A DNA stretch of 40,804 nucleotides from a virus, in UHGV virus genome UHGV-0164601. One strand, written 5' to 3'. Position 1 is the stretch's first letter; each line of letters begins with the position of its first letter. The notes beneath the pieces were generated by a model that did no database searches, had not been told where the DNA came from, and saw only the letters and a list, made by a program, of their open reading frames with translations. The position numbers and the translations under genes are program-made. Below are positions 2,341 through 39,515 of the stretch, piece after piece.

Positions 2341-2497
2341 TGAAACCTTGTTCATGTGATATTTTTCAAGTCGGCTTAACTTTCTCACTTAATCCAACCC
2401 TCTCTGAAAATTAATGCCAGCAGATAAAGCCATGCTGAAACAGAGGCCAGGAATAAGTACCATCCTGACCATTTGATCCAGTGCCTTAGCAGCGCAC

Positions 2498-2746
2498 TCA
2501 TGCAGCGTTGCTCACGGGACGATATACACGTTGCTGAACAGGAGGTTTTTTACCCTGGAACTCTGCCGGGCTTGCTGCCTGACGTTCATCAAGCCAACGC
2601 TCAACTTCGTCACGGTTCCATGCGCAGCGTTTGTCAGTGATATACCAGCGTTTAGGAAATTCCCCTGCGCGCTCCATACGGTCGATAGTGCTCCATGACA
2701 GTGGCACCACCGCCAGGAGTTCCTTCTTACCTAATGCACCTTTCAT
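2498..2746 (-). CDS. AlpA-family phage transcriptional regulator / excisionase-like protein
   Basis: 82-aa protein MKGALGKKELLAVVPLSWSTIDRMERAGEFPKRWYITDKRCAWNRDEVERWL, the typical AlpA/Xis-like winged-helix signature; lies in the integrase-proximal early operon. Confidence 0.7.
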   Translation of the reverse strand: MKGALGKKELLAVVPLSWSTIDRMERAGEFPKRWYITDKRCAWNRDEVERWLDERQAASPAEFQGKKPPVQQRVYRPVSNAA

Positions 2747-2795
2747 AAATACCTCTCTTGGTTGCAGTGCGGCGCGTGTGGCGCCGCGGTGGTGG

Positions 2796-3737
2796 TTACA
2801 TAGATGTTTCGTTTAATTCTTCCCGACGAACGCTGTAAACGTCGGTGGCTTTTGCCAGCAGTTCGTCATCATCTGAAAGTTTTTGTGCAATGTATTTGTA
2901 AGCCTTATCCAGTTCGGAGACAGTGCTGTAATTCATCGCTGCGCTGGTAAAGGCCATCAGCATTTCTTCTGGATCACGGCTATCCGCTTTACGCGTTTGC
3001 TCATCAGGCTTTTTCACTGGTTTAGCGTTGATCAGACTGTTCATTCCCGCAGCAGTGGTCGTTTGCGGAGTAATGTCTCGCTCAACGCGCGGTGCCGTTT
3101 CCTGTAATTCGTCTGGGGTGTAGACGCCCATGATTACGTCAGGACAGTGCAGGCGAGACCAGCGTTTTGTCGCAAGGTATGCGAGTTGTTGTTTCGGATC
3201 ACTGGCCCAAAGTGTGGAGTTTCTTACCTGTGCTTGAGACAGCATTAACTCAAGCACTCGAGGTTGATCCTCGCCCTTCATGGTTGCCCATACGCGAACA
3301 CCGCAGCCTTCTTCGTCTTTTAGAGTCCAGCCTGGTGCGATATATGGATTGCCGTTTTTGGATGTTTTCTCAACAAACTTACCGATCACGCGTTCCCACG
3401 GCCCGAACCACTCGTAGTTGATGCGATCTTTTGTTGGCGACATCGTTGAGATAACTGCGTTTACTAATTGGGCTTCATAACCTAGCGTGCCGTTCACAAC
3501 ATGGGTTTTCTGAGCCACGGCAAACGGGTTCATTCCCCACTGCGCAGCCTGCATTGCCACGGCCATGCAATCAGCTGGTTTCCCGGCGAGGTGCGCCGGT
3601 ACCGTTACGCGGCTTTGCGCCATTACCTCGGCGAATTTCATCAGTTGGTTCAAGCCGTCTGGGCTGAAAATAGTTGCAGCAGTTCCAGCGATTGCTGTGT
3701 CTACTGGTGCGTTGATGTTTGCGATGTCGTTGCTCAT
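2796..3737 (-). CDS. recT: RecT-family single-strand annealing recombinase
   Basis: RecT-like core (PADCMAVAMQAAQWGMNPF...VVNGTLGYEAQL); ATG 3737 overlaps the upstream exonuclease stop as ATGA (translational coupling). Confidence 0.8.
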   Translation of the reverse strand: MSNDIANINAPVDTAIAGTAATIFSPDGLNQLMKFAEVMAQSRVTVPAHLAGKPADCMAVAMQAAQWGMNPFAVAQKTHVVNGTLGYEAQLVNAVISTMSPTKDRINYEWFGPWERVIGKFVEKTSKNGNPYIAPGWTLKDEEGCGVRVWATMKGEDQPRVLELMLSQAQVRNSTLWASDPKQQLAYLATKRWSRLHCPDVIMGVYTPDELQETAPRVERDITPQTTTAAGMNSLINAKPVKKPDEQTRKADSRDPEEMLMAFTSAAMNYSTVSELDKAYKYIAQKLSDDDELLAKATDVYSVRREELNETSM

Positions 3738-24241: not shown

Positions 24242-26988
24242 TGCCTGTTGTTCCTACTACATCCGGACGCCAGGTGCAAAGTCGTGGTGTGCAAACCGGT
24301 GGTTTTCAGACCTTCGATGTTCCTCAAGCAGGTCAGGTGCTGGCGAATGTCGCAGATCAGTATGCGGTGGCATATGGTGAAGCTAGGCAGAAAGCGAATG
24401 TTGCTATGGCCCAGGAGGCGTTACTGCAATTTAACCAATTTGCAGATGACCAGATTAACAACCCTGAAAATGGGCTGATTTCTAAACAGGGTAAAAACGC
24501 TCTTGGTCAGAGTGACGCTGTTATGAAAAATATGCAGGAAAGGGCTCAGGCATTATTAGGCTCAATTCCTGAAAGTGAGGAAAGGAATAAATTATCCTTT
24601 CAACTCCAGCAGTCTATGCAGTCTTATTACAATCAGGCACGTCGATATGAAGTTGGGCAGTTTCAGCAATTCCAAGATCAAACGTATTTGTCAGGAAATG
24701 CATTGGCTGTCACTCAGTCTGCGGGGCTATATAGCGATAACCAAGCATTTGTCGATTTAGCCAAGCAGCGATTTGAATCTATTGATCAATACGCTGATGC
24801 GCATGGGCTTCCTGATGAGTGGCGTGTTCAGCAGAAAACTCAGCTCAAGGAACAAATGGGGCAGCAAGCATGGATAGGAAATATCGCTCAAAAATACAAC
24901 GAGTTTCTTCAGGTTAATGGAGAGCCAGGGGATCTTGATGGTGTGAGTCGTGCAATATCACATGGTAATTCATTGGATGCTCGTGGTTTACGTAATAATA
25001 ACCCTGGCAATATTGAAGCGAGCAAATCTAACCCGTGGGAAGGTCAGATCGGTAGCGATGGACGTTTTGCAACGTTTGCTACCCCTGAGCATGGAATCCG
25101 CGCGTTGGGTAAAAATATGTTGTCTTACCAGCGTCAAGGCTATGACACCGTTAGCGAGATTGTTAATCGCTATGCTCCGGCTAGTGATGGTAATAATACT
25201 GATGCTTATATTAGGGCATTGTGTAGTGAGCTTGGTGTTGGGGAGAATGATCAGCTTGATATCTCTAACCCAAAGACACTAGCTGCTTTATGTGCTGGGA
25301 TTATTAAACACGAAAATGGCAGTATGCCTTATAGCACCGAACAGCTTGAAACTGGTATCTCGGCAGCCCTTGGTCTAACTAACCTTGATTCACCTAAGCG
25401 TTATACGGGCAATGCGGCATTTGACGCTATGAGCCCTCAAATGCAAATACAGGCATTGAGGCAGGCTAATGAGCTGAGAAATCAGTACCGCCAGCAGTAT
25501 GCGGACCAGCTTAGCACCGTAGTTAAAGATGCATATTCAGCCCTTGATGAAGGATTGAAACCTGAGAAGTTACCTTCTGAGGACGATTTTATCCGGGCCA
25601 ATGGTCCGCGCATTGGCGCTATGAAGTGGAAGGATATGCAGGCGCAGATACAATATGGAGGTGTCATTGGTGCCGCTAAAGACCTCACTCCAGAAGGACG
25701 ACAAGACATTCTTGAACGTTTACGTCCACAGGATCCAAACGCTCTTGGATTTGCAGCTAACCAGCAACGCTGGGAGAAAATGCAGGCCAAATTTAAAGAG
25801 ATGGATAGGGAGTGGGAGATTCAGCAGGGAAGAAACAGGTTCGTGTCTTCAATGCAAAATAACTTCCCGCTGGACCCTAACGACAAAAACAATCAGGCAG
25901 CGGTAGACCGTTATTTCGCGCAGGATATCGCGCCTTCGTTTTCCATATCTGATCCGCAGAGCATCAATACACTGGTCACCGTCACAACTAAAAGCGGCAT
26001 GATACCAACTCAGGTTAAAACAATGCTTAACAGTGGAGCAACATCAAGAGATCCTGCGCTGGTTGTCCCGATGGCAAAATTCTACGGTCAGTTATTCGAT
26101 AATAATCCGGCGGCAGCGGCAACACTTGATAAAAGTACGATGGCATTTTACGGCAAGGTTTACGATTATTCCCGCGCTGGCGTGCCGGAGGATAAGGCTG
26201 TTGATATGGCTTACAGCCAGGTGTTCCAACAGGATGACCGAATGAAACAGATGCTTTCCACTGCCATGCGAGACAAAAAATATGTCGCGGCGAGGGCAAC
26301 TGCTGCACAAAATAACGCCAGCAGTCTGACTTCCTTTGGTTCGTGGTCTCCGGATATTACCGATCCAGGAAAATCAAATGCGGCCTATCAGCGAGATTAC
26401 CAGACAATTTACGATGCTAACTTTGTACAGACAGGTGGCGATGCAGAACAGGCTGAGAAAATGACCAATGCCATGATCAGAACCACCTGGGGAGTTTCTA
26501 CAGTTAATGGCAAAGCAGAGGTTATGAAGTATGCACCTGAGGCATTGTACGGAGTAAATAATGGTGCTGGTAACTGGATACAGGGGCAGTGGGAGCAGGA
26601 AAAACGCGAGCTTAAATCAAAATCCTTTGGCGGTCCTCGCAGTGATACGGACTTAATACTTGTTTCTGATGGCCTTACGGCAAGGGATAGGAGTTATGCT
26701 GTTATGGTTTTACAGCCTGACGCAAACGGAGCGATAGAACCGAGAAATTATATTGGAGAAAATGGTCTCCCTGTTCGTTTCAAGCCGGATCAGCTGACAT
26801 CTCCAATGTACAGGCAAACCATTCAGTTCCAGCAACAGCGTGTTGATGAGGCTAGAGTGCGGAGAGAAGGCAATCCGCTGCCGCAGTTCAGCAATAAAGA
26901 TGGATATACTCCTCCAGATCTGACCAAACCATTCGGTTATGGTTCAGCCAATTACCTTCCGAGCAATATATACGCAGGGGGCAAATAA
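24241..26988 (+). CDS. Internal virion (core/ejection) protein B-like, 915 aa
   Basis: Second large core gene, translationally coupled; contains a conserved-looking central module NNPGNIEASKSNPWEGQIGSDGRFATFATPEHGIRALGKNML of unknown function. Confidence 0.5.
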   Translation: MPVVPTTSGRQVQSRGVQTGGFQTFDVPQAGQVLANVADQYAVAYGEARQKANVAMAQEALLQFNQFADDQINNPENGLISKQGKNALGQSDAVMKNMQERAQALLGSIPESEERNKLSFQLQQSMQSYYNQARRYEVGQFQQFQDQTYLSGNALAVTQSAGLYSDNQAFVDLAKQRFESIDQYADAHGLPDEWRVQQKTQLKEQMGQQAWIGNIAQKYNEFLQVNGEPGDLDGVSRAISHGNSLDARGLRNNNPGNIEASKSNPWEGQIGSDGRFATFATPEHGIRALGKNMLSYQRQGYDTVSEIVNRYAPASDGNNTDAYIRALCSELGVGENDQLDISNPKTLAALCAGIIKHENGSMPYSTEQLETGISAALGLTNLDSPKRYTGNAAFDAMSPQMQIQALRQANELRNQYRQQYADQLSTVVKDAYSALDEGLKPEKLPSEDDFIRANGPRIGAMKWKDMQAQIQYGGVIGAAKDLTPEGRQDILERLRPQDPNALGFAANQQRWEKMQAKFKEMDREWEIQQGRNRFVSSMQNNFPLDPNDKNNQAAVDRYFAQDIAPSFSISDPQSINTLVTVTTKSGMIPTQVKTMLNSGATSRDPALVVPMAKFYGQLFDNNPAAAATLDKSTMAFYGKVYDYSRAGVPEDKAVDMAYSQVFQQDDRMKQMLSTAMRDKKYVAARATAAQNNASSLTSFGSWSPDITDPGKSNAAYQRDYQTIYDANFVQTGGDAEQAEKMTNAMIRTTWGVSTVNGKAEVMKYAPEALYGVNNGAGNWIQGQWEQEKRELKSKSFGGPRSDTDLILVSDGLTARDRSYAVMVLQPDANGAIEPRNYIGENGLPVRFKPDQLTSPMYRQTIQFQQQRVDEARVRREGNPLPQFSNKDGYTPPDLTKPFGYGSANYLPSNIYAGGK

Positions 26989-29900
26989 TGCCGATATATG
27001 AACAGGATCCTAAAGAGTTGCTTGGCGAGGATATTCAGCAAATAGCAGCACCTGATGACAGTAATTTCTATATGGAAACACCTTCTTTGCTTTCTGCTGT
27101 GAACCCATTTACCAGTGATCAACGCGTTCAAAGGTCTAGACAAGCAGCATTTCGTATAGATAACACGCTGGGTAGCTTTATTGCCAGTGCTCCTTTCAGT
27201 CAGTTTGACAGGGTTGAAGGATATAACCCATTTGATAACGATGCAGCAGATATTAAAGGCTATGAAGATTTTGCAGATTCGTTTATCAACTCCGGTTCGC
27301 ATGAAGAAACAATGGCAATTAAACATCGAATCGATAAGCAAAGAACAGATAGAGAATATCTATCTGAAATGGGTGGTGCTGGTACTATTTCAAGCTTAGC
27401 AATGGGAATGATAGACCCGGTTAATGTGGCTGCAATGTTCATCCCTGTAGGGGCGGTAGCGCGTGGAGGAAGTATTGCTGAGACGGCAGGGCGTTTTGCC
27501 CTGGCGAATGCTGCTGGTGGGGGAGTATCAGAAGCCGCATTACAGGCCACTCAGGAAGCTCGCTCACCGATGGAGAGCGTATCGAACGTTGTTGTTGATG
27601 CTCTCGTTGGTGGGATCCTTGGTGCTGGTGCACAGCTACTTGCTGGACCTAGCGCGCGCGAGGCAGTGGTTAACTCAGTAGGTAATCATTTGCGAGGTAT
27701 GGATTCTCCTCAAAGCATTGGTGCAGCTCAGGTTTTCAATACCACACTCGATCAGGAACAGCTCGCTGGACTTGGACTTGCTAACAAAACGTTGAGTGTC
27801 ACTCCTGCTGGCCGCTTGGCGCAATCACCATCTCTTGTCTCCCGTCAGATTAACCAGCAGCTTGCCGAAAATAACTATTTCTTCGCCAAAAATGATGAGG
27901 GGTTGGCTACGTTTACGGCAGTCGAGACTAAGATTAAGCAATACGACGCCATGCTTTATAAGCAGATGGAAGCTACTCGTGATGCTTACCAGCAGTACAG
28001 CAAATCTGTCAGCGCCCGCGGCGTGAAGAGGATGAACTTTATTGATTTCAATGAAGCTGTTGGCATGGCTATGCGCCGTGGTGATCAGAGTGATATTCCT
28101 GAGGTTTCACAAGCAGCCGCCAGAATCCGCCCCATTTTTGAGACCACAAAAGCCCGTATGCAGGAATTGGGGATCCTTCCTGAGGATATCGATGTCGTGA
28201 CGGCGAAGAGTTATCTTCCCCGCATTTATAAGTTCGATAAGATACTTTCCGACCGCACTGAATTCAGAGGGCGAATTGCCAACTGGATACAAGGGATTAG
28301 TGCCAAAGGTGCTGACAAAGCAGGTCAGCGAATTGAAAAGATAAATTCATTGCTAAAAACTGCAGAGGAATCAGCACCGCGCGCTGATGCTCTCGCTAGT
28401 GAAATCGCTGAAGCGGAGAAATGGTCTGGTAAAAAAATTCTACTCATGGAAGAACTGGATAAACGAAATAAGCTTATATCTCAGGAGACTGACACACAGG
28501 CGCGTCTTACAAGAATAGAAAAAGAGTTGGCCGAGACTTCATCAGAAAAACTTCAGGCAAGAATGATGAAAGAAAGCTCTGACCTTAAAACACGCCTTGA
28601 TGATATAGCGCAGGCAAAGAGTGAGCTTCCTGTCTATCAGCGCCATATGGAGTTGCTGGATAATCCACGGAAATATCGTTCTGAGCTTCGCCGACTGCAA
28701 AAACGGGCAAATTCAACCACAAGGCTGAATGCAAGCCGCGAGCGAGCACTGAAGCAGATGGAGCCTCTATCCCGAGAGGAAGCAGAGGACGCTGCTGACG
28801 AGATCGTGAATAAAATAATAGGCGCACCTTCCGGGCTTGTACCAGCCGATATTATCCCAGAGAGACTCGTTGGTCGGGCTGGTTTCACTAAAAGCAGAAC
28901 GCTGCTTATTCCTGATGAGCGTATAGAAGATTTTCTTGAATCAGATGTTAACTACATCATGGAAAGTTATCTCCGGCAGGTGGCACCAGAAATTGAGCTG
29001 ACTGCGCAGTTTGGCCGTAAAGATATGGGGGAGCAAATCCGTCAGGTTAGTGAGGAATATACCCGGCTAATAAAAGAGGCTAAAACACCTAAACGACGTG
29101 CAGTTCTTGAGAAGCAACGGGAGGCTGATATTAGGGATATTACGGCTATGCGTGATCGACTGCTTGGTACTTACGGTGCACCTCAAGATCCACGCAGTTT
29201 CTTTGTTCGTGCCGGGCGAGTTGCTAGGAATATTAACTTCCTCCGTTTGCTTGGTGGAATGACTGTCTCCGCTGCAACTGATCTGATGCGACCGATGATG
29301 CAGCATGGCCTGAGAAAATCTCTCGGACCAATGGTAAGCATGCTTAAAAATATGGACTCAGTGAAAATTGCAACCAGGGATTTGCGAGAAATGGCAGTTG
29401 GGCTTGATTATGTCCTGTCTACGCGTACAAAGGCTATAGCGGATCTTACTGACCCCTATAGCCGGAGAAGCGCCGCTGAGCGAGGTCTGAACTGGATGAC
29501 GCAGAAATTCGGTAACTGGACGCTGATGAATCAGTGGAACAGCGCACTTAAATCATGGTCTGGGATGATAGTGCAGTCGAGGATACTTGACGCGGCTCGC
29601 CAAGTTTCTGCTGGTGGCACGCTCTCCAAAAGTGAAATGCGGAAGATGGCACAGGTCGGCATCAATGAAGATGTTCTGCGCCGAATCGGGGAGCAATTCG
29701 GGAAGCACGGAGAGGATATGGACGGGCTGTTAACCGGGCATAGTCATCTGTGGGATGACCGTTTCGCTAGAGAGATTTTCCAGTCTGCAGTGCTGAAAGA
29801 TGTAGACTCAGTGATTGTAACGCCTGGCGTAGGTGATACACCGCTGTTTTTTAGTAAAGAAGGCTGGAAGATGATCACGCAGTTCAAAACGTTTATCTTC

Positions 29901-30377
29901 GCACAGCATAACAGGGTGCTGGTATCTGGTATCCAGCAGGGCGATGCTGCATTCTATCTTGGTGCGCTTGGCACGATTGCGCTTGGCTCAATGGTCTATA
30001 TGATGAAACAGAAGTTAAGCGGTCGCGATATCGACTACAGCTGGAATAACCTTGTGAAAGAGGGGATCGACCGGGGCGGAATGCTTGGCTGGCTCTCTGA
30101 GCCGCTGAATACCGTTGAGAACATAAGCGGCGGTAGGTTTGGTCTTGGCGCGATGTTTGGTGCGCCTCCGGTATCAAGGTTTCAGAGTCGTAATGCTATT
30201 GGTGCTTTACTTGGTCCTACCTTTGATCTTGGCGGTGATGCCGCGACGGTTGCAAATGGTGTACTTAACGGAGAATTTGACAGCCAGCAAACCCACGCTG
30301 TCCGTAAAATGCTACCTTTTCAGAATCTGTGGGCGATATCACCATTACTAAATAAAGTTGAAGAGCAGATGAAATAG
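26988..30377 (+). CDS. Internal virion (core/ejection) protein D-like, 1129 aa
   Basis: Largest ORF of the structural module, immediately after the 915-aa core gene, as T7 gp16 follows gp15. Confidence 0.5.
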   Translation: MPIYEQDPKELLGEDIQQIAAPDDSNFYMETPSLLSAVNPFTSDQRVQRSRQAAFRIDNTLGSFIASAPFSQFDRVEGYNPFDNDAADIKGYEDFADSFINSGSHEETMAIKHRIDKQRTDREYLSEMGGAGTISSLAMGMIDPVNVAAMFIPVGAVARGGSIAETAGRFALANAAGGGVSEAALQATQEARSPMESVSNVVVDALVGGILGAGAQLLAGPSAREAVVNSVGNHLRGMDSPQSIGAAQVFNTTLDQEQLAGLGLANKTLSVTPAGRLAQSPSLVSRQINQQLAENNYFFAKNDEGLATFTAVETKIKQYDAMLYKQMEATRDAYQQYSKSVSARGVKRMNFIDFNEAVGMAMRRGDQSDIPEVSQAAARIRPIFETTKARMQELGILPEDIDVVTAKSYLPRIYKFDKILSDRTEFRGRIANWIQGISAKGADKAGQRIEKINSLLKTAEESAPRADALASEIAEAEKWSGKKILLMEELDKRNKLISQETDTQARLTRIEKELAETSSEKLQARMMKESSDLKTRLDDIAQAKSELPVYQRHMELLDNPRKYRSELRRLQKRANSTTRLNASRERALKQMEPLSREEAEDAADEIVNKIIGAPSGLVPADIIPERLVGRAGFTKSRTLLIPDERIEDFLESDVNYIMESYLRQVAPEIELTAQFGRKDMGEQIRQVSEEYTRLIKEAKTPKRRAVLEKQREADIRDITAMRDRLLGTYGAPQDPRSFFVRAGRVARNINFLRLLGGMTVSAATDLMRPMMQHGLRKSLGPMVSMLKNMDSVKIATRDLREMAVGLDYVLSTRTKAIADLTDPYSRRSAAERGLNWMTQKFGNWTLMNQWNSALKSWSGMIVQSRILDAARQVSAGGTLSKSEMRKMAQVGINEDVLRRIGEQFGKHGEDMDGLLTGHSHLWDDRFAREIFQSAVLKDVDSVIVTPGVGDTPLFFSKEGWKMITQFKTFIFAQHNRVLVSGIQQGDAAFYLGALGTIALGSMVYMMKQKLSGRDIDYSWNNLVKEGIDRGGMLGWLSEPLNTVENISGGRFGLGAMFGAPPVSRFQSRNAIGALLGPTFDLGGDAATVANGVLNGEFDSQQTHAVRKMLPFQNLWAISPLLNKVEEQMK

Positions 30378-30378
30378 G

Positions 30379-31230
30379 ATGAAAAAAATAAATTTGTTTT
30401 TTGGCATAGTGCTTTCAATAGTCTCTGTAAATCCTACAGCTGCCAGTTCATTGCAATGCAATAAGGATAACTTTGATGCATGCAAAACGTGCGAACAATT
30501 ATCAAAGGCTATCGACTTAAAAGAACCTAATCGTGGCGATTACTATAGAGGGGCTTTATGGAATGGGCTTTACGCCTCTTATGTAATTAATTGCCCTGTG
30601 GTTGCAGAGAAGTTACTGAGCCATGGTGCTATACCATCATATGGCGGATATATGGGGTCTATGGGGGCGGTTCTGACAGGAAAATGGCCTCATAACAATG
30701 AATCAATAAATCTTTCATGGGCAGATTTGCTTATAAAACATGGATTTGATGTTAATAGGCATACGGGGAATTATAAATCAGCTACTGAAGTATGGGCTAT
30801 AGATAAAAAACAGATTGAATATAAGTCAGTTTTTGACAAGTTAATTCAATCCAGCGAAGTAAAACCACTCGATCCTTCAAGAAATTTAGAATGGTGTGCG
30901 TCTGAAGGGTATCGCTCAGTTGTCGTTTATTCCCTTAACTCATGTATAGAAAATGCTATAAAACGTTTGGATGACGGTGTTTCTTCAGCGTCTGATATTT
31001 CATCAGCAGCCGTAAATTCCTGTACTAGCGATGTAGAAAATTTCAATAAGCATTTGGCATGCAAAGCAGCTGTTAAAGAAAACTCTGATAAAGAGAGAAG
31101 CAACGTTTACCAGTTATTAACCAGTGATAGTCAAATGAATAAAAATGTTATTGATATGCTGAAGGAAAGAAATATTGAAACGGTTCTTGAATTTAGAGCT
31201 GAAAATCGATCAGCGAAAACTGCACAGTGA
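30379..31230 (+). CDS. Secreted protein of unknown function (moron), possible ankyrin-like repeats
   Basis: Signal-peptide-like N-terminus MKKINLFFGIVLSIVSVNPTAASS; visibly AT-rich codon usage; LL.HGA / LLIKHGFDVNRHT ankyrin-like segments; own terminator. Confidence 0.55.
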   Translation: MKKINLFFGIVLSIVSVNPTAASSLQCNKDNFDACKTCEQLSKAIDLKEPNRGDYYRGALWNGLYASYVINCPVVAEKLLSHGAIPSYGGYMGSMGAVLTGKWPHNNESINLSWADLLIKHGFDVNRHTGNYKSATEVWAIDKKQIEYKSVFDKLIQSSEVKPLDPSRNLEWCASEGYRSVVVYSLNSCIENAIKRLDDGVSSASDISSAAVNSCTSDVENFNKHLACKAAVKENSDKERSNVYQLLTSDSQMNKNVIDMLKERNIETVLEFRAENRSAKTAQ

Positions 31231-31236
31231 TCAAAC

Positions 31237-31261
31237 AGGCCGCTTTCGCGGCCTTGTTTTT
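31237..31261 (+). terminator. Rho-independent terminator after the secreted-protein gene
   Basis: AGGCCGC-TTTC-GCGGCCT hairpin followed by TGTTTTT. Confidence 0.6.
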
Positions 31262-31300
31262 AACGAATGCCACCGCCGCCTGGGTGGGAATCCGCAGACA

Positions 31301-31323
31301 CAAAAAAGCCCGCGCCGCGGGCT
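31301..31323 (-). terminator. Rho-independent terminator of the minus-strand two-gene cassette
   Basis: GCCCGC-GCC-GCGGGC hairpin containing the stop codon, followed on the minus strand by TTTTTTGT. Confidence 0.5.
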
Positions 31324-31762
31324 ATTCTTCTTCATCATAAAAAAGCGGATTGTCGTTTCCATCTGATGAAAGGAAAGGTATGTGTTCTCTTGAAAATCCA
31401 ACAACGACAATTTCATTATCATTTTTTGCATAATGAATGCATTCATTAGAATGCATTCCGCCAGGGTTGAAATTTAAGTTAATGGTATAATTCTTAAATG
31501 TGTTTGGATACCATGTTGGCCCACAATGATAATGCCAATAATTCTCTTGCTCATAATTGTCTGAGCCGGGAATTTTATCATGGTTATCATCAACCCACGA
31601 TGGCTTGTTTTTTCCAACAAGCGCCCTTCCATTGGCAACATCTTCTAAAAACCTTTGTATGATTTTTATTTCATCGTCAGTAAGGAAAGGTCCGTCTACA
31701 GCGAAAGGGGTGTTGCTTTCCCCATTTAGAAAACTATTAGATATTCTAATGTTAAACTTCAA
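31322..31762 (-). CDS. Hypothetical protein (146 aa), distal gene of a two-gene moron cassette
   Basis: TTG start at 31762 with AGGAG 6 nt upstream; AT-rich; conserved-looking YWHYHCGP segment; acidic C-terminus FYDEEE; no family recognised. Confidence 0.5.
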   Translation of the reverse strand: MKFNIRISNSFLNGESNTPFAVDGPFLTDDEIKIIQRFLEDVANGRALVGKNKPSWVDDNHDKIPGSDNYEQENYWHYHCGPTWYPNTFKNYTINLNFNPGGMHSNECIHYAKNDNEIVVVGFSREHIPFLSSDGNDNPLFYDEEE

Positions 31763-33131: not shown

Positions 33132-33860
33132 ATGGAAGTTTTCTGGATAGTTGTTGGTGTGGTTGCGGTGATTATTTACGTTATCAACCAGAACAAGACT
33201 AAGATCTCTGATCGTACGGTCGTTAATCATAACAAAACGATAAAGACCGAAGATGGGGAGATAACGATTAATCGTACACAGGTGATAGAACACACCTCTA
33301 CTCAGTTTCAAAAAACTGGAGGTAATGCGCCTAATATTTCCGCACCTCCTGCTTATGATAGTGCGGTAATCCAGACATATTATAAACAGCAGGAGTTAGC
33401 AAAAGAGAGGCAACTGATTCAGCCAAAGCCGTTTACAGCTGAGATTCCACCTGGAGTGTCAACGCGTCCGGCATATCATGGAAGATTCCCTGGTGATGAC
33501 ATATCGTCTCAGTCATCTAAAAAAGCACCTCAGGCAATATCAGAGCCAGCAAGAATACCTTCTGTATCGCTGCCAAAAGAAGAATCAGCTAACAGAGTTT
33601 CAAGTGGTAGCAAGCAGTGCTTGCGATGCAGAATAAACCTTCCATATGAAAAATTCAGGAAATCGTCAAAAAATCCAGATGGATTGACTAAATGGTGTGC
33701 AAGGTGTCTCGATGGCCCAAAGAATACACGCCATATGAAGTGGTGCCCAATTTGTAATGTCCGCAGAAAACGAACCAGCTTTTACCCTAATAATCAAAAT
33801 GCGGACGGCTTAATGGCATGGTGCAAAACGTGCTGGGATGAGCACAAAGCGAAACGATAG
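33132..33860 (+). CDS. Membrane-anchored protein with duplicated CxxC-x22-WCxxC zinc-ribbon (rubredoxin-like) modules
   Basis: N-terminal hydrophobic helix FWIVVGVVAVIIYVI, Pro/Ser/Gln-rich linker, then CLRC...DGLTKWCARC and CPIC...DGLMAWCKTC repeats; GAGGA before ATG 33132. Confidence 0.6.
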   Translation: MEVFWIVVGVVAVIIYVINQNKTKISDRTVVNHNKTIKTEDGEITINRTQVIEHTSTQFQKTGGNAPNISAPPAYDSAVIQTYYKQQELAKERQLIQPKPFTAEIPPGVSTRPAYHGRFPGDDISSQSSKKAPQAISEPARIPSVSLPKEESANRVSSGSKQCLRCRINLPYEKFRKSSKNPDGLTKWCARCLDGPKNTRHMKWCPICNVRRKRTSFYPNNQNADGLMAWCKTCWDEHKAKR

Positions 33861-34231: not shown

Positions 34232-34335
34232 TATCTATTCATATTCACAGTATTTCTATCCATATGTGGTTTTTCAGGTAATAGAATAACCGGATATGCG
34301 GCGCAACGGGTGCTGCGACTATCTGGAGATTTAAC

Positions 34336-37311
34336 ATGACGGTCTCAACCGAAGTTGACCACAACGAATACACAGGTAACGGCGTTACGACATCATTTCC
34401 GTATACCTTTAGGGTTTTCAAGGAATCTGATCTGGCAGTACAGGTGGTTGACCTTGACGAAAATATCGCTGTGCTGGCTCTTGATACTGATTACACTGTC
34501 ACTGGGGCTGGTGGATATAATGGCGGTAATGTAATTCTGTCGAAGGCGTTAGCTAACGGTTATCAGATTTCTATATCACGAGAGCTACCGGTTACGCAGG
34601 AAACTGATCTGCGAAATCAGGGAAAGTTTTTCGCTGAGGTGCATGAAGACGCGTTAGATAAGCTGACGATGCTGATACAGCAAGTCCGCAGTTGGTTTAG
34701 CCTGGCGCTGCGCAAACCATCATTTGTGGCAAACTATTACGATGCTTTGAATAATTACATCCGCAATTTGCGCGATCCTTCCAAGCCTCAAGATGCAGCT
34801 ACAAAGAATTATGTTGATAATATTGTTAATGTGAATATTAACAGGACATTACGGGTTCCAGATAATTTTATTGAACCACTTCCTCCAGTTCATTTACTGG
34901 AAGAAACTGTCATTGGTATCGTCAATGGTAAACCTATAGGTGTACCTGTGCCTTCTGGCAGTGCCGCAGATGTTCTTCTGCAATTATCTAGCGCAGGAGA
35001 AGGAAAAGGTGATGCATTAATTGGTGTAAGGCAGCCATTTGCCGGGGCTGTAACTATAACTCAGCATGAAAACAATGCTCTTTTCTTAAATGTAAAACAA
35101 TTCGGAGCAATTGGGGATGGGAAATATCATCCATTATCTGAGAGGTTTTCTTCAATTTCTGAAGCAAAATCCTTATATCCTTTTGTTGACTCATTATCTC
35201 AGTCAATAGACTGGGCCGCGTGGCAAGCTGCCATTAACACAGGAAAGGTTATTTATGGTACTGATAATGCGTATGTAATAACGGATACGTTAACACCTGT
35301 TTCTGGTGGTGGGATAATTGGTCTTGGTGTGGGCAAATGGGTCTCTGGATATACTGCAACATTTGCTCCTGATATTACCACAGGGACCACATTCCTGATG
35401 TACGGGGTAGGAAATAAAAAATATACTGTAGATTGTGTTTCTAATATGGATGTTAGTGGTGGTGTGGTTTCTAATCCATCTTCCGAAGACCCGTATACAA
35501 CAACGGCACCTGCGTCATCATATGATTTATTGGATTTTACTAACGGTGATGCTAATGGGACTACAAGAGCCACGCTTAAACCATTCTCTGCCGCAATATT
35601 GATGCCTGAGACAGGATGTGTTCGCCTTGAGAACTTTCGTGTTGTTCCATATTTCAATGGGCTGGATGGTTATAAAGACATTGCAAATACCGGTCTTGGC
35701 GATGAGTGGGATGTAGGTATTTGGTCACGTGCGTCTTTTGGCAATGAATACCGCAATTTGCAGGTGGTTGGATACTGGCGCAAGACGGCACTTTTAAAAA
35801 CGAACATTCCTGTATCTGGCACGCTGGCCGCTCAGGGCGAGGATGAAAACTATTATCACTGTAGATTCCAGGGATTCAAGGGTATTTCGATCCGCGCCCA
35901 TGATGTATTCCGAATTACAGCGGTAACGTCCAGCACTATCGAAATCCCATGGTCAGCAAGCCACACCTTCGAAACGTCCGGGGTTTTAAGATCTGGAGGC
36001 AGGAATTTCACTTATTCAGGATTATCCGTATCCGGTGATAAGTTAGTATTTACTGGAGTGTCTAACGCTTCTGAGGCAACAGTAGGTTCTACTATACGGC
36101 GAAATGACATAGATAACTTTGGTATGGCGGGAACGCAATTTTTCGATTGCTACATTACCAGCCTGTATCACCACACACATCTGCTTGCCACATCGCAATA
36201 CCTGTCTCAGCCATTCAGCCGGCCATCAGAGTGTATGGAGGTTTCAGGGGAACCAGTTCGCGGTGTACAGGTACATGCGGGAACCATTCAGGGATGGGAT
36301 GATGTTCTTATTCATCTGCATGACTGTGGAAATATGAACTTTTACAGTACATATTTCGAAAGCCAGCAAGCATATGTAACTATAAATGGTGGTAATGCTA
36401 TTGGTTATGGAGCACGTATGATAGCTTCCCGGCAATCAACAAGCTCATTACCATATGCAGCAGGGAATACTCGAGTGCTTAGAATGGTCGGGTGCTCTGA
36501 AGGCAATGGCGTTGACTGGGGTCCTGTATTTAACAACTATACAGGAGGAAGATATAATTCTGGAGACGGTGTATTTAACCCCCGCGATGCATTTATAGAC
36601 CATAAATCTCTTCCTGAGCAGTCAGGAGGTGAGTCAAGACTCGTATCACAAAAAGGAAATGCCAGAGTAGTATGTGGTGTTGGTAAAACTGTACTGCTTG
36701 GACCAACGTCAGGAGATTGTAATTTACAGAGCAATACTGGAAGTTTAAATATTAGAAGTGGGATAAGAGTAAGAATCGGTCACGCTGATGGAACAGACTG
36801 GTGGTTGGCAGATGCTAATAAAATAGCTCCTGTTGATGATAATGTTAAAGCTATTGGACAGCCATCAAACAGATGCTCTGTTATCTATGCAGGAACCGGG
36901 TCAATCAATACGTCAGATGAAACTCTTAAAACAAGATATGATATTCTTAATGCAGAGCGTAATGCCGCTATTGAAATAAAGTCAGTCATCTATAAATTTA
37001 AATTTAATGACTCAATTAATCACAAAGGAATTGAGTCGTCCAGGTATCATTTTGGCGTTGGCGCTCAAACCGTAGGGGATATTCTTAGAAAGCATGGTTT
37101 AAACCCTGAGCAATATGCTTTTTGGTGTTACGATGAATGGCCTGACGTATGGGATGAAGAGGTGATAACTGAAGAGAGCACAGATCCTGATACAGGTGAG
37201 AAAATTTATTCTCAATATAAAACAGGAGATATGATTCTTGTAAAAAAAGCAGGAGGACGCTACGGAATTCGTTATGACGAATTAGCCATGTTTATATTAA
37301 TGTCAATGTAA
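34336..37311 (+). CDS. Tailspike / tail fibre with central beta-helix (depolymerase-like) domain and C-terminal intramolecular chaperone (peptidase S74-like) domain
   Basis: N-terminal virion-attachment-like region (NEYTGNGVTTSFPYTF); pectate-lyase-type motif LNVKQFGAIGDGKYHP; C-terminal SDETLKTRYDILNAERNAAIEIKSV... resembling self-cleaving chaperone domains; GGAG before ATG 34336. Confidence 0.7.
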   Translation: MTVSTEVDHNEYTGNGVTTSFPYTFRVFKESDLAVQVVDLDENIAVLALDTDYTVTGAGGYNGGNVILSKALANGYQISISRELPVTQETDLRNQGKFFAEVHEDALDKLTMLIQQVRSWFSLALRKPSFVANYYDALNNYIRNLRDPSKPQDAATKNYVDNIVNVNINRTLRVPDNFIEPLPPVHLLEETVIGIVNGKPIGVPVPSGSAADVLLQLSSAGEGKGDALIGVRQPFAGAVTITQHENNALFLNVKQFGAIGDGKYHPLSERFSSISEAKSLYPFVDSLSQSIDWAAWQAAINTGKVIYGTDNAYVITDTLTPVSGGGIIGLGVGKWVSGYTATFAPDITTGTTFLMYGVGNKKYTVDCVSNMDVSGGVVSNPSSEDPYTTTAPASSYDLLDFTNGDANGTTRATLKPFSAAILMPETGCVRLENFRVVPYFNGLDGYKDIANTGLGDEWDVGIWSRASFGNEYRNLQVVGYWRKTALLKTNIPVSGTLAAQGEDENYYHCRFQGFKGISIRAHDVFRITAVTSSTIEIPWSASHTFETSGVLRSGGRNFTYSGLSVSGDKLVFTGVSNASEATVGSTIRRNDIDNFGMAGTQFFDCYITSLYHHTHLLATSQYLSQPFSRPSECMEVSGEPVRGVQVHAGTIQGWDDVLIHLHDCGNMNFYSTYFESQQAYVTINGGNAIGYGARMIASRQSTSSLPYAAGNTRVLRMVGCSEGNGVDWGPVFNNYTGGRYNSGDGVFNPRDAFIDHKSLPEQSGGESRLVSQKGNARVVCGVGKTVLLGPTSGDCNLQSNTGSLNIRSGIRVRIGHADGTDWWLADANKIAPVDDNVKAIGQPSNRCSVIYAGTGSINTSDETLKTRYDILNAERNAAIEIKSVIYKFKFNDSINHKGIESSRYHFGVGAQTVGDILRKHGLNPEQYAFWCYDEWPDVWDEEVITEESTDPDTGEKIYSQYKTGDMILVKKAGGRYGIRYDELAMFILMSM

Positions 37312-37323
37312 TAATAAATGCAA

Positions 37324-37355
37324 TAACCCCGAATAAAACAGCGGGGTTATTGTTA
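37324..37355 (+). terminator. Rho-independent terminator after the tailspike gene
   Basis: TAACCCCG-(10-nt loop)-CGGGGTTA hairpin followed by TTGTTATT. Confidence 0.6.
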
Positions 37356-37717
37356 TTATAATAATGCTCTTAACTTCTTAAATGATATTTATATGCACTT
37401 AGATTATTAAATCTATATTATGCCTGTTATTTATGTGTTCTGTTATATGTTTTGCAGGCACTGTTGGCAGCATTAAAGGAAATTGTATTTATGGCGAAAT
37501 AGCTGGTATCGTGTTTTTATTGTGCGTAAAAATAACAGACTGCATATATTATTGTATAAAGTTTTGGAAATGAAAACACTCAAACTTACCGCTGTGGATA
37601 TGTTTTGACCATCGCGAATTGGATTGGTAATATTGGGTAACAAAAAACCATAAATGGTTTATCATGCGTAATGCTTTACTGTTCAGGAGGTAGTTATGCA
37701 TATAAACGGTGGAAAAC

Positions 37718-38122
37718 ATGTCAGCTCAACTAACCAGTGAAACTTTAAATCAGTGGCTTAGCATGAGTTCTTTGGCGGCAGTGATAGCAGGAGTTCCTCC
37801 TGAGGTTGCTTTGGGGTCTTTGGCTGGGGCGGTGATTTTTGTTACCTCTGCGGTAGAGTATCCCATTCGTCGTCGCGTGCTCTTGTCGATGCTTAGCTTT
37901 CTCTGCGGACTTCTATTCTACAAACCAGCAGCATCAATTCTTATCGGCATAGCCAGCCTGATCCCTACAATCACACAGGATTCTTTCGAGAAAGGGATTG
38001 TTTTCTCTGCCGGTGCATTTGTGTCAGCAATCGTCGCTGTGCGAATTGGGATCTGGCTCTATCACCGTTCCGATAATCCACGCGAGTTAATTCCGGGGAG
38101 AAAAGACGATGGTAACTCATGA
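37718..38122 (+). CDS. Holin-like membrane protein (putative)
   Basis: About 135 aa with 3-4 predicted transmembrane helices, first gene of the lysis cassette; possible dual start (GTG 37709, ATG 37718). Confidence 0.5.
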   Translation: MSAQLTSETLNQWLSMSSLAAVIAGVPPEVALGSLAGAVIFVTSAVEYPIRRRVLLSMLSFLCGLLFYKPAASILIGIASLIPTITQDSFEKGIVFSAGAFVSAIVAVRIGIWLYHRSDNPRELIPGRKDDGNS

Positions 38123-38417
38123 GCTTTTTTTGCTTATCACCAATGCGGTTATTTGCGCCGGTATAGCAGTTCGAGTTGCCACATTTCGGAGAAACGGTTC
38201 TCAACACAGGCGATGGGGTGGGTGGCTTGCTTATTTCCTGATTGTTGCTGCGGCCAGCATTCCAGTTCGTGTCGCTTATGCAATCTGGTTACGCACGCCA
38301 ATGGTTGTGGATTTATCTGAGGTCATTATCAACGCTGTCATGCTTGCTGCAGTCATTAAAACGCGCGGTAACGTAGTTCAGATTTTCAAAATAACGAGGT
38401 CTAAACATGGAGATTAA
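38109..38417 (+). CDS. Second small membrane lysis protein (holin/antiholin-like, putative)
   Basis: 102 aa, three hydrophobic helices, ATG 38109 overlapping the upstream gene; directly precedes the endolysin. Confidence 0.45.
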
Positions 38418-39036
38418 ACAATTCCAGCGAGCTGCTGGTATCAGCGAGGAACTGGCCGCTCGCTGGTTCTCGCATATAACTTCTGCGATGAAAGAGTTTG
38501 GTATCAGCAAACCAGAAGATCAGGCAATGTTTATTGCTCAGGTCGGGCATGAGTCTGGAGGCTTCACCCGGTTGCAGGAAAATTTCAACTACAGCGTAAC
38601 CGGATTGGCTAACTTCGTTCGGGCTGGGCGTCTCACTCAGGGGCAGGCTAATGCACTTGGTCGCCGTGCTGGTGAACCACCATTGCCACTCGAGCGCCAG
38701 CGCGCGATCGCAAATCTGGTGTACAGCAAACGCATGGGGAACAATGCCCCTGGTGATGGCTGGAATTACCGTGGGCGCGGGCTTATCCAGATTACCGGTT
38801 TGAATAACTATCGTGACTGTGGAAACGGTCTGAAAGTTGACCTGCTGGAGAATCCTGAACTGTTGGCGCAGGACGAATACGCGGCTCGTAGCGCGGCGTG
38901 GTTCTTCTCCAGCAAAGGTTGCATGAAGTATACCGGAGATATTGCACGTGTAACTCTGCTTATCAATGGTGGCCGGAACGGCATTGATGACCGGCGCGCG
39001 CGATACATCACTGCCAGTAAGGTGCTGGCGGTATGA
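38407..39036 (+). CDS. Endolysin, glycoside hydrolase family 19 (chitinase-like lysozyme)
   Basis: GH19 signatures [12 protein letters not shown] and [16 protein letters not shown]; position between the membrane lysis proteins and the spanins. Confidence 0.8.
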
Positions 39037-39515
39037 TCTGGGCATTCGCAAAAGCATACTGGAAACAGTTGGTTATCATGGCGATGCTTGCTGTTCTGGT
39101 CATATCAGGAGTTGTAGCCTGGAATGCACACGGCAGTCGTCAGTACGATGCCGGGTATGCGCAGGCGAAGGAAGACCGCAAAGCTGAAGATGAGATAGTT
39201 CGTCAGCACTACGAACAGGAGAAATCGATCAATGAACGTGAAGCGCAGCAGAGGATCGACCAGGCGCGCAATGATTCTCTTGATGCTGCCGCTCGCGCTG
39301 GCCGGTTGCAGCAACAACTCTTTGCCATCCGTGAGCAGCTCAGGCAGTATAACGCCATTGTCGGCGCTGGGACGTCAGCCGCAGACACCGGAGTTTTGCT
39401 TGCCGACGTGCTCAGCAAATCTCTCGAGAGAAACAGACAACTGGCAGAGTATGCTGACCGGGCAGCCGAAGCCGGAAGAGTCTGCGAAAAACAATACGAC
39501 ACCCTGACCAGATAG
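39033..39515 (+). CDS. Rz-like inner-membrane spanin (i-spanin)
   Basis: N-terminal transmembrane helix ([18 protein letters not shown]) then Gln/Arg/Glu-rich coiled coil; ATGA-coupled to the endolysin stop. Confidence 0.65.
39271..39507 (+). CDS. Rz1-like outer-membrane lipoprotein spanin (o-spanin), fully embedded in the +1 frame of the Rz-like gene
   Basis: [13 protein letters not shown] lipobox signal followed by a Pro/Ser-rich short mature peptide, entirely inside 39033-39515. Confidence 0.5.
   Translation: MILLMLPLALAGCSNNSLPSVSSSGSITPLSALGRQPQTPEFCLPTCSANLSRETDNWQSMLTGQPKPEESAKNNTTP

Follow-up and report, generated by a model that had tools for sequence, protein, structure and literature searches.

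A two-domain, predicted periplasmic protein behind the ejection genes of epsilon15-like prophages as a candidate superinfection exclusion factor

Blocking of phage DNA entry in the periplasm has been shown for the HXS system (PMC13128918), and three phage-encoded envelope proteins offer the closest models for the gene analyzed here, an open reading frame (ORF) for a protein of 283 amino acids (aa) at positions 30379-31230 (+ strand, ATG start, stop codon included) of UHGV virus genome UHGV-0164601, whose full 40,804 nucleotides (nt) we call the window. P22 SieA is an integral inner-membrane protein that is expressed in lysogens from its own promoter, PsieA, and acts on the gp16/gp20 ejection conduit; escape mutations fall in these two ejection proteins (PMC10883804). 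HK97 gp15 (PMC3594210), a moron that neighbours the tape-measure gene within the tail operon, is a small inner-membrane envelope protein with its own promoter and terminator that blocks DNA entry. T4 Spackle is a signal-peptide-bearing periplasmic inhibitor of the gp5 lysozyme (PMC7677548), which binds stoichiometrically to this muralytic part of the incoming injection machinery. A further model comes from Enterobacter cloacae, where Tli, a periplasmic lipoprotein with six ankyrin repeats encoded beside its effector, serves as the immunity protein against Tle, a type VI secretion system (T6SS) lipase (PMC11470151).

With HK97 gp15 the 283-aa gene shares its character as a compositionally deviant extra gene in a structural operon, beside a DNA-injection gene and with cellular homologues outside phages; unlike gp15, it has a terminator only, encodes a two-domain, predicted periplasmic product and is conserved across a phage clade. 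The parallel to T4 Spackle lies in the predicted signal peptide and in an upstream 915-aa core protein of the window that matches muralytic phage families (phrog_1044, 'endolysin'; phrog_7182, 'tail injection transglycosylase'). Like Tli, the product would place an ankyrin-repeat solenoid in the Gram-negative periplasm, where an inhibitor role would be that of Tli itself; unlike Tli, it lacks both a lipobox and a neighbouring effector gene, and it combines about three repeats with an additional helical domain. In the P22 gene order, the last ejection-protein gene and the tailspike gene flank a region that contains sieA next to the antirepressor module. The 283-aa gene occupies the same ejection-tailspike region beside an antirepressor gene in a short-tailed temperate phage, and likewise encodes an accessory, here predicted, envelope protein; its product differs from SieA in being predicted soluble and periplasmic, in having no detected promoter and no sequence similarity to it, and in the putative nature of its activity.

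We propose that the gene encodes an accessory, non-virion periplasmic protein, and that superinfection exclusion at the periplasmic DNA-delivery step is the best single hypothesis for its role, to which we give a probability of roughly 40%. The hypothesis draws on the genomic contexts of stand-alone relatives of the C-terminal module, on the membrane or secreted nature of most of the cargo that sibling phages encode in the same position, and on the precedents for exclusion directed at injection machinery. According to this proposal, Sec would export the protein into the periplasm of the lysogen, where it would bind, via its ankyrin module, either a part of the apparatus with which incoming phages deliver DNA across the periplasm or a host envelope partner on which this apparatus depends, and such binding would keep superinfecting phages out, much as P22 SieA, HK97 gp15 or T4 Spackle do. 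Export with signal-peptide cleavage, disulfide formation, expression in the lysogen, the binding target and the exclusion activity are the steps that we infer. The family was already known as hypothetical (phrog_6118, WP_000723561.1), and prophage cargo that targets the envelope and lies next to structural genes is a well-known category; our additions are the dissection into two domains, the assignment of the ankyrin fold, the recurrent repressor-adjacent C-module, the conserved synteny combined with persistent AT-richness, and the definition of a cargo slot. The analysis defines two uncharacterized secreted domain families: a periplasmic ankyrin module, and a helical module with the motif LDDGxSxASDI that is repeatedly found next to phage repressors. 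If the protein does block periplasmic DNA delivery, it would represent a new exclusion mechanism, amenable to structural study and directed against the T7-like ejection conduit.

Domain architecture and stand-alone relatives

An exhaustive profile search resolved the 283-aa protein into two separable modules. The N-terminal domain (residues ~24-165; 30448-30873, + strand) has a divergent ankyrin-repeat fold and contains four invariant cysteines (Cys27, 35, 38 and 72). Modelled on its stand-alone family, it reached a predicted local distance difference test (pLDDT) score of 94.6 and is predicted to form the stacked helix-loop-helix repeat solenoid of the ankyrin superfamily, while the family profile (A2) matched ankyrin chains in the PDB, Ankyrin-1 among them, with E values from 7.5e-5 to 5e-4. 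Repeat ends of the ankyrin-typical form 'LL..GA.P/VN' are visible at residues 79-86 and 117-125. Pfam Ank models gave no match to the 283-aa protein at E <= 0.1, and one UniRef entry, for a Morganella homologue, bears the label 'Ankyrin repeat domain-containing protein'. We take the N-module to be an ankyrin-type protein-binding domain of about three repeats and of cellular origin, which bears out, for residues ~24-165, the ankyrin-like segments that an earlier note on this DNA had pointed out. The C-terminal domain (residues ~166-283; 30874-31227, + strand) is a predicted helical bundle (pLDDT >90 in the full-length model) that carries an LDDGxSxASDI motif and the remaining four cysteines (Cys173, 189, 215 and 228); its profile found no PDB relative by sequence.

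Each module also occurs alone. Stand-alone C-module homologues bear signal peptides and share the LDDGxSxASDI motif together with Cys189 and Cys215; their genes, with the motif in the form LDDGxSPASDIA, lie at 2489-3076 of locus L020, 6001-6516 of L057, 3104-3556 of L058 and 7001-7534 of L021. One relative (P0137) is encoded two genes downstream of a cI-type repressor (phrog_4), on the same strand, in a temperate phage. Another (P0143), in a second temperate phage, lies directly downstream of a helix-turn-helix repressor, with a cro-like gene facing it and RecT/YqaJ further downstream, a position equivalent to that of lambda rexAB. A third (P0150) is a lone reverse-strand gene between SNF2 and DNA polymerase A in another temperate, integrase-bearing phage, and a fourth (P0138) resides in a defence island with ApeA, TIR, AAA_15/21, Mrr, PLD and HsdR. 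The contexts of the relatives point to a role in phage-versus-phage conflict or envelope protection rather than to one directed at eukaryotes.

The N-module occurs alone in secreted, periplasmic proteins of 160-180 aa that are encoded on the chromosomes of environmental Alpha- and Betaproteobacteria, the latter being Burkholderiaceae, in which the gene stands downstream of a pyridoxal phosphate decarboxylase gene. In Alphaproteobacteria (L015/L016, 6570-7492; L017, 6618-7495; L018, 697-1574), it is found 5 nt downstream of a small cytochrome c gene and divergent from an EF-hand NADPH-oxidase-like (Ferric_reduct/FAD/NAD) gene, an arrangement that suggests a conserved periplasmic redox module.

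The 283-aa protein begins with a predicted Sec signal peptide of the signal peptidase I type (residues 1-23, MKKINLFFGIVLSIVSVNPTAAS; 30379-30447, + strand), recognized by hydropathy and by its n/h/c layout of MKK, a 14-residue hydrophobic run and NPTAAS, with small residues at -3 and -1 and without a lipobox; cleavage is predicted near A22/S23/S24. The 12-mer Kyte-Doolittle maximum is 2.73 (residues 6-17), and no second hydrophobic segment was found in the remainder of the protein (best 19-mer mean 0.99). This signal-like character, though not its sequence, is kept in 14 of 14 homologues and in both families of single-domain relatives, and the non-conserved N-termini of the homologues stop just before the invariant Cys27. 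Eight cysteines in all are invariant in the alignment down to 39% identity. Both the signal-peptide-like N-terminus and the several cysteines of the earlier note are therefore upheld; the protein would be exported and its signal peptide cleaved, and up to four disulfides probably stabilize it in the periplasm. A lipoprotein was considered and rejected, as the residues before the cysteines concerned (SLQ-C, AG-QC, LAK-C) misfit L-[AS]-[GA]-C. A cytosolic isoform from an internal start, as in Tli, was likewise rejected, the first internal methionine being only at residue 92.

Searches for a described family returned phrog_6118 as the only significant PHROG match, over the full length and at E = 1e-200, with no function given, and the identical RefSeq sequence WP_000723561.1 is labelled 'hypothetical protein'. 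The 283-aa protein had no Pfam, NCBIfam or PADLOC match, scans of the single-domain relatives gave nothing usable, and a literature search on the protein accession and on phage EC.W1-9, to which the whole region is 99.8% identical, found no functional or proteomic data. A pseudogene or chance ORF is ruled out by the invariant cysteines, the conserved motifs and a ratio of nonsynonymous to synonymous substitution rates (dN/dS) of 0.15.

The cargo slot, its distribution and its composition

We assign the window to a prophage of the epsilon15/phiV10 (Uetakevirus-like) type, and the hosts of the cargo slot to a clade of epsilon15-like temperate podophages of Enterobacterales. The left boundary of the slot is the gene for the last internal core or ejection protein (1129 aa; 26988-30377, + strand; phrog_342, 'internal virion protein', E = 2.7e-235). 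At the TAG-G-ATG junction (30375-30381, + strand), a single base (G, 30378) separates its stop codon from the ATG of the 283-aa ORF, whose start is indeed 2 nt past the last base of the core gene, as the earlier note had it; translation of the two genes is probably coupled in E. coli. The gap widens to 11 nt in Serratia and to 31 nt in Morganella, where the homologue is preceded by a GAGG Shine-Dalgarno sequence of its own. A consensus scan from 29500, about 880 nt upstream of the start, found no sigma-70-type promoter on the + strand, the sole candidate being TTGACA (30277-30282) and TAAAAT with an over-long spacer of 22 nt, and a similar scan found no sigma-70-like promoter in the 700 nt upstream of the Morganella or Serratia homologue. 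Downstream, an intrinsic terminator (31237-31261, + strand) closes the operon, with a hairpin at 31237-31254 followed by TGTTTTT; at -16.1 kcal/mol and z = -4.6, and with none of 200 shuffles folding as well, it deserves the description as a strong terminator of the gene's own that it had received. The counterpart hairpin in Morganella has a T-run on the opposite strand only. Taken together, the gene reads as the final cistron of the ejection-protein operon.

The terminator is part of a conserved junction segment of 64 bp (31235-31298) that is common to epsilon15/phiV10-type prophages and forms the right boundary of the slot. It is 93-98% identical in phiV10, where it is annotated as a terminator, in TL-2011b, in phiv142-3 and in others. 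A 2.1-kb query across the junction matched 481 of 5426 E. coli genomes, and among the listed records without the ORF and the convergent orf146, the junction segment was the only part of the query that matched. The segment acts like a conserved point of recombination at which the structural and antirepressor modules meet.

Between these boundaries the cargo varies. Where the core gene of E. coli prophages is 99.1-99.4% identical, another cassette can occupy the slot; Klebsiella phage ST512-KPC3phi13.3, with 86% DNA identity at the 3' end of the core gene, carries an unrelated 204-aa soluble protein, phiV10 a 46-aa protein with two transmembrane segments, and phiv142-3 a ~98-aa protein with several. 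Three of four alternative cargoes encode a membrane or secreted protein, and PHROGs assigned the alternative genes to function-unknown families only. Since other cargo fills the slot of sibling prophages and related phages, the ORF is dispensable for virion formation, and an essential virion component is ruled out.

Of 5426 complete E. coli genomes, 106 (about 2%) carry the ORF in identical or nearly identical form, always on the chromosome, and many human clinical isolates are among the carriers listed. The 3' end of the core gene is present in 120 E. coli genomes, of which the same 106 carry the ORF. Homologues at 84-89% identity occur in Klebsiella, at ~58% in Serratia and at ~40% in Morganella and Providencia prophages; no copy turned up when one genome per species was scanned. 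The homologue directly follows a core gene of ~1130 aa in the genomes from Morganella and Serratia, and in IMG/VR contigs this position is kept in all 31 recovered, which include Klebsiella-type alleles and more distant relatives, with gaps of 1-31 nt and one of 176 nt. Relative to E. coli, the Morganella protein is 41% identical (core proteins 44-60%) and the Serratia protein 61% (core proteins 56-79%), and both position and domains are retained down to ~40% identity. By these comparisons the gene is old and stably inherited, with a divergence that tracks the neighbouring core proteins; a recent insertion is ruled out by the conserved synteny and this co-divergence. The gene is under purifying selection, with a dN/dS against a second E. 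coli allele of 0.15 (core gene 0.19), which breaks down to 0.06 for the N-domain and 0.28 for the C-domain.

The composition of the gene is that of foreign DNA in every background. Its GC content of 0.370, and of 0.289 at third codon positions (GC3), compares with 0.467-0.503 and 0.419-0.435 in the three core genes, so the codon usage is more AT-rich than that of the flanking structural genes, as had been suspected. It falls within the lowest 1.3% of all 852-nt windows, 5.6 standard deviations under the mean of the structural module (0.495 +/- 0.022). The deficit recurs in each of the 31 viral contigs as well as at the loci from Morganella and Serratia (GC 0.32-0.40 against 0.41-0.54 upstream), and despite long co-divergence and purifying selection the gene remains 9-17 GC points under the phage background in every genus. 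Silencing of the H-NS type, selection acting on the rate of translation, or alleles that were replaced repeatedly may be the cause.

These features bear on the earlier suggestion that the gene is a moron, which by the definition used here (PMC3594210) is an extra gene relative to close relatives, of deviant composition, with its own terminator and with its own promoter active in the repressed prophage. The 283-aa gene is extra with respect to prophages that have other cassettes behind a 99% identical core gene and to related phages, its composition deviates, and it has its own terminator; as far as the consensus scans upstream in E. coli, Morganella and Serratia tell, it has no promoter of its own, which leaves three of the four features. 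Its presence in 106 of the 120 E. coli genomes with the core gene and in the phages of other genera counts against a simple 'more DNA' element. The suggestion thus stands as regards foreign composition, terminator and dispensable, swap-prone cargo; it does not stand as regards recent insertion or an own promoter.

Exclusion and its alternatives

Several observations weigh against superinfection exclusion. With no promoter found and a start 1 nt after the core stop, the gene looks late-expressed together with the ejection proteins, a timing that is wrong for exclusion unless low-level or unconventional transcription takes place in the lysogen, and this is the main weakness of our proposal. Two copies of the gene occur in one genome, so one such prophage does not strictly shut out another. 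Stable vertical inheritance and low dN/dS do not form the pattern of an arms race, the N-domain-only relatives sit in ordinary chromosomal contexts, and the association evidence for the C-domain amounts to four contexts. Moreover, no homologue of the 283-aa protein was found among described exclusion or defence families in Pfam, NCBIfam, PADLOC and PHROGs.

The same late position would suit a periplasmic helper of the lytic cycle, made and exported together with the ejection proteins, that neutralizes muralytic or membrane-active ejection proteins, tunes lysis, or stops progeny from injecting into the dying cell or debris. Such a role would explain a last cistron at a 1-nt gap without a detectable promoter in three genera, its divergence in parallel with the core proteins, a position kept in 31 of 31 viral contigs, and the muralytic matches of the 915-aa protein upstream. 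It is at odds with the absence of the gene from sibling prophages with a 99% identical core gene and from related isolated phages, with its distance from the lysis cassette (37709-39515), and with C-domain relatives at prophage-expressed rather than late positions, and we consider it unlikely. If this were the role, or if the gene were inert cargo, the locus would be a case of ordinary phage mosaicism. Adjacency to, co-transcription with and co-divergence with the three core or ejection genes could also be read as the mark of an additional virion or ejected protein, whose hydrophobic N-terminus would be a membrane anchor after ejection and whose cysteines would oxidize in the recipient periplasm. 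This is very hard to reconcile with the rest of the evidence: the layout is that of a canonical cleavable signal, incompatible with cytoplasmic assembly, each domain is found by itself in signal-peptide proteins of cellular genomes, unrelated cargo replaces the gene where core genes are 99% identical, and PHROGs gave no match to internal virion protein families.

The ankyrin domain in a predicted periplasmic protein, the precedent of Tli and the one C-domain relative within a defence island would all fit an orphan immunity protein that inhibits toxins acting in the periplasm, for instance colicins or the lipase and amidase effectors of T6SS. We regard this as improbable, as the protein is no lipoprotein, unlike Tli, an effector gene is absent nearby in every locus examined (the neighbours being phage core, antirepressor and tailspike genes), Pfam, NCBIfam and PADLOC gave no sequence match to immunity families, and the strict linkage to the ejection module of one phage lineage would be left unexplained. 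The earlier note had suggested a lysogenic-conversion or host-interaction factor, which could be a virulence factor directed at a eukaryotic host or one that alters the bacterial surface. In its favour, effectors aimed at eukaryotes typically contain ankyrin repeats, the AT-rich cargo gene ends in a terminator, and clinical E. coli are numerous among the carriers listed; a Sec signal, however, reaches the periplasm only and no dedicated secretion system is linked to the gene, the N-domain relatives are periplasmic proteins of environmental bacteria, the gene is kept in Serratia, Morganella and Providencia phages, always adjoining ejection genes, and no own promoter was found. Conversion is in our view quite improbable.

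Returning to superinfection exclusion, a bolder and doubtful form of the proposal would see in the family an undescribed class of phage periplasmic exclusion factors. In this form, a disulfide-locked ankyrin module, taken over from periplasmic proteins of cells, would direct a helical LDDGxSxASDI effector domain that evolves rapidly to the T7-type ejectosome of incoming podophages, a gp14/15/16-like conduit; AT-richness would be selected for H-NS-type silencing or conditional expression, and the C-domain proteins beside cI would represent the minimal form. Exclusion, if true, would also bear on host range in phage therapy, as EC.W1-9, which carries the gene, has been proposed for that use.

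Neighbouring genes and the isolated phage

Stretches of the window that were tested are 99.8% identical to EC.W1-9 and are also prophage-borne in the chromosomes of more than 100 E. coli genomes. The preprint on EC.W1-9 describes the phage as lacking an integrase and as safe for therapy (bioRxiv 10.1101/2024.06.28.601134); contrary to this, its GenBank record PP445227.1 annotates an integrase (34301-35551).

Upstream of the slot, besides the core proteins described above, a 192-aa protein carries the RefSeq label 'virion core protein, T7 gp14 family'. Downstream of the 283-aa ORF follow a convergent 146-aa ORF, a BRO-N/Ant antirepressor, a 242-aa Zn-ribbon protein and the tailspike. The convergent orf146 (31322-31762, - strand) is AT-rich (GC 0.356) and matches phrog_5954, for which no function is given; Pfam and PADLOC scans of it were without match. 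A GC hairpin with a minus-strand T-run (31307-31323), found in the hairpin scan, is the terminator of orf146 and lies outside the 283-aa gene. Other carriers of the 283-aa ORF have DUF2335, YafO-toxin or other genes in place of orf146; a functional pairing of the two convergent genes was considered and ruled out, as the downstream genes vary among carriers.

The 242-aa protein (33132-33860, + strand) combines an N-terminal transmembrane helix with two C-terminal Zn-ribbon motifs (endonuclease VII / Lar-like PHROGs, phrog_6762), an unusual membrane-anchored architecture. Finally, the lowest GC content of the window (0.33) is found at 36900-37800, a stretch that takes in the 3' end of the tailspike gene, with its endosialidase-chaperone (Peptidase_S74) domain, and the spacer ahead of the holin genes.
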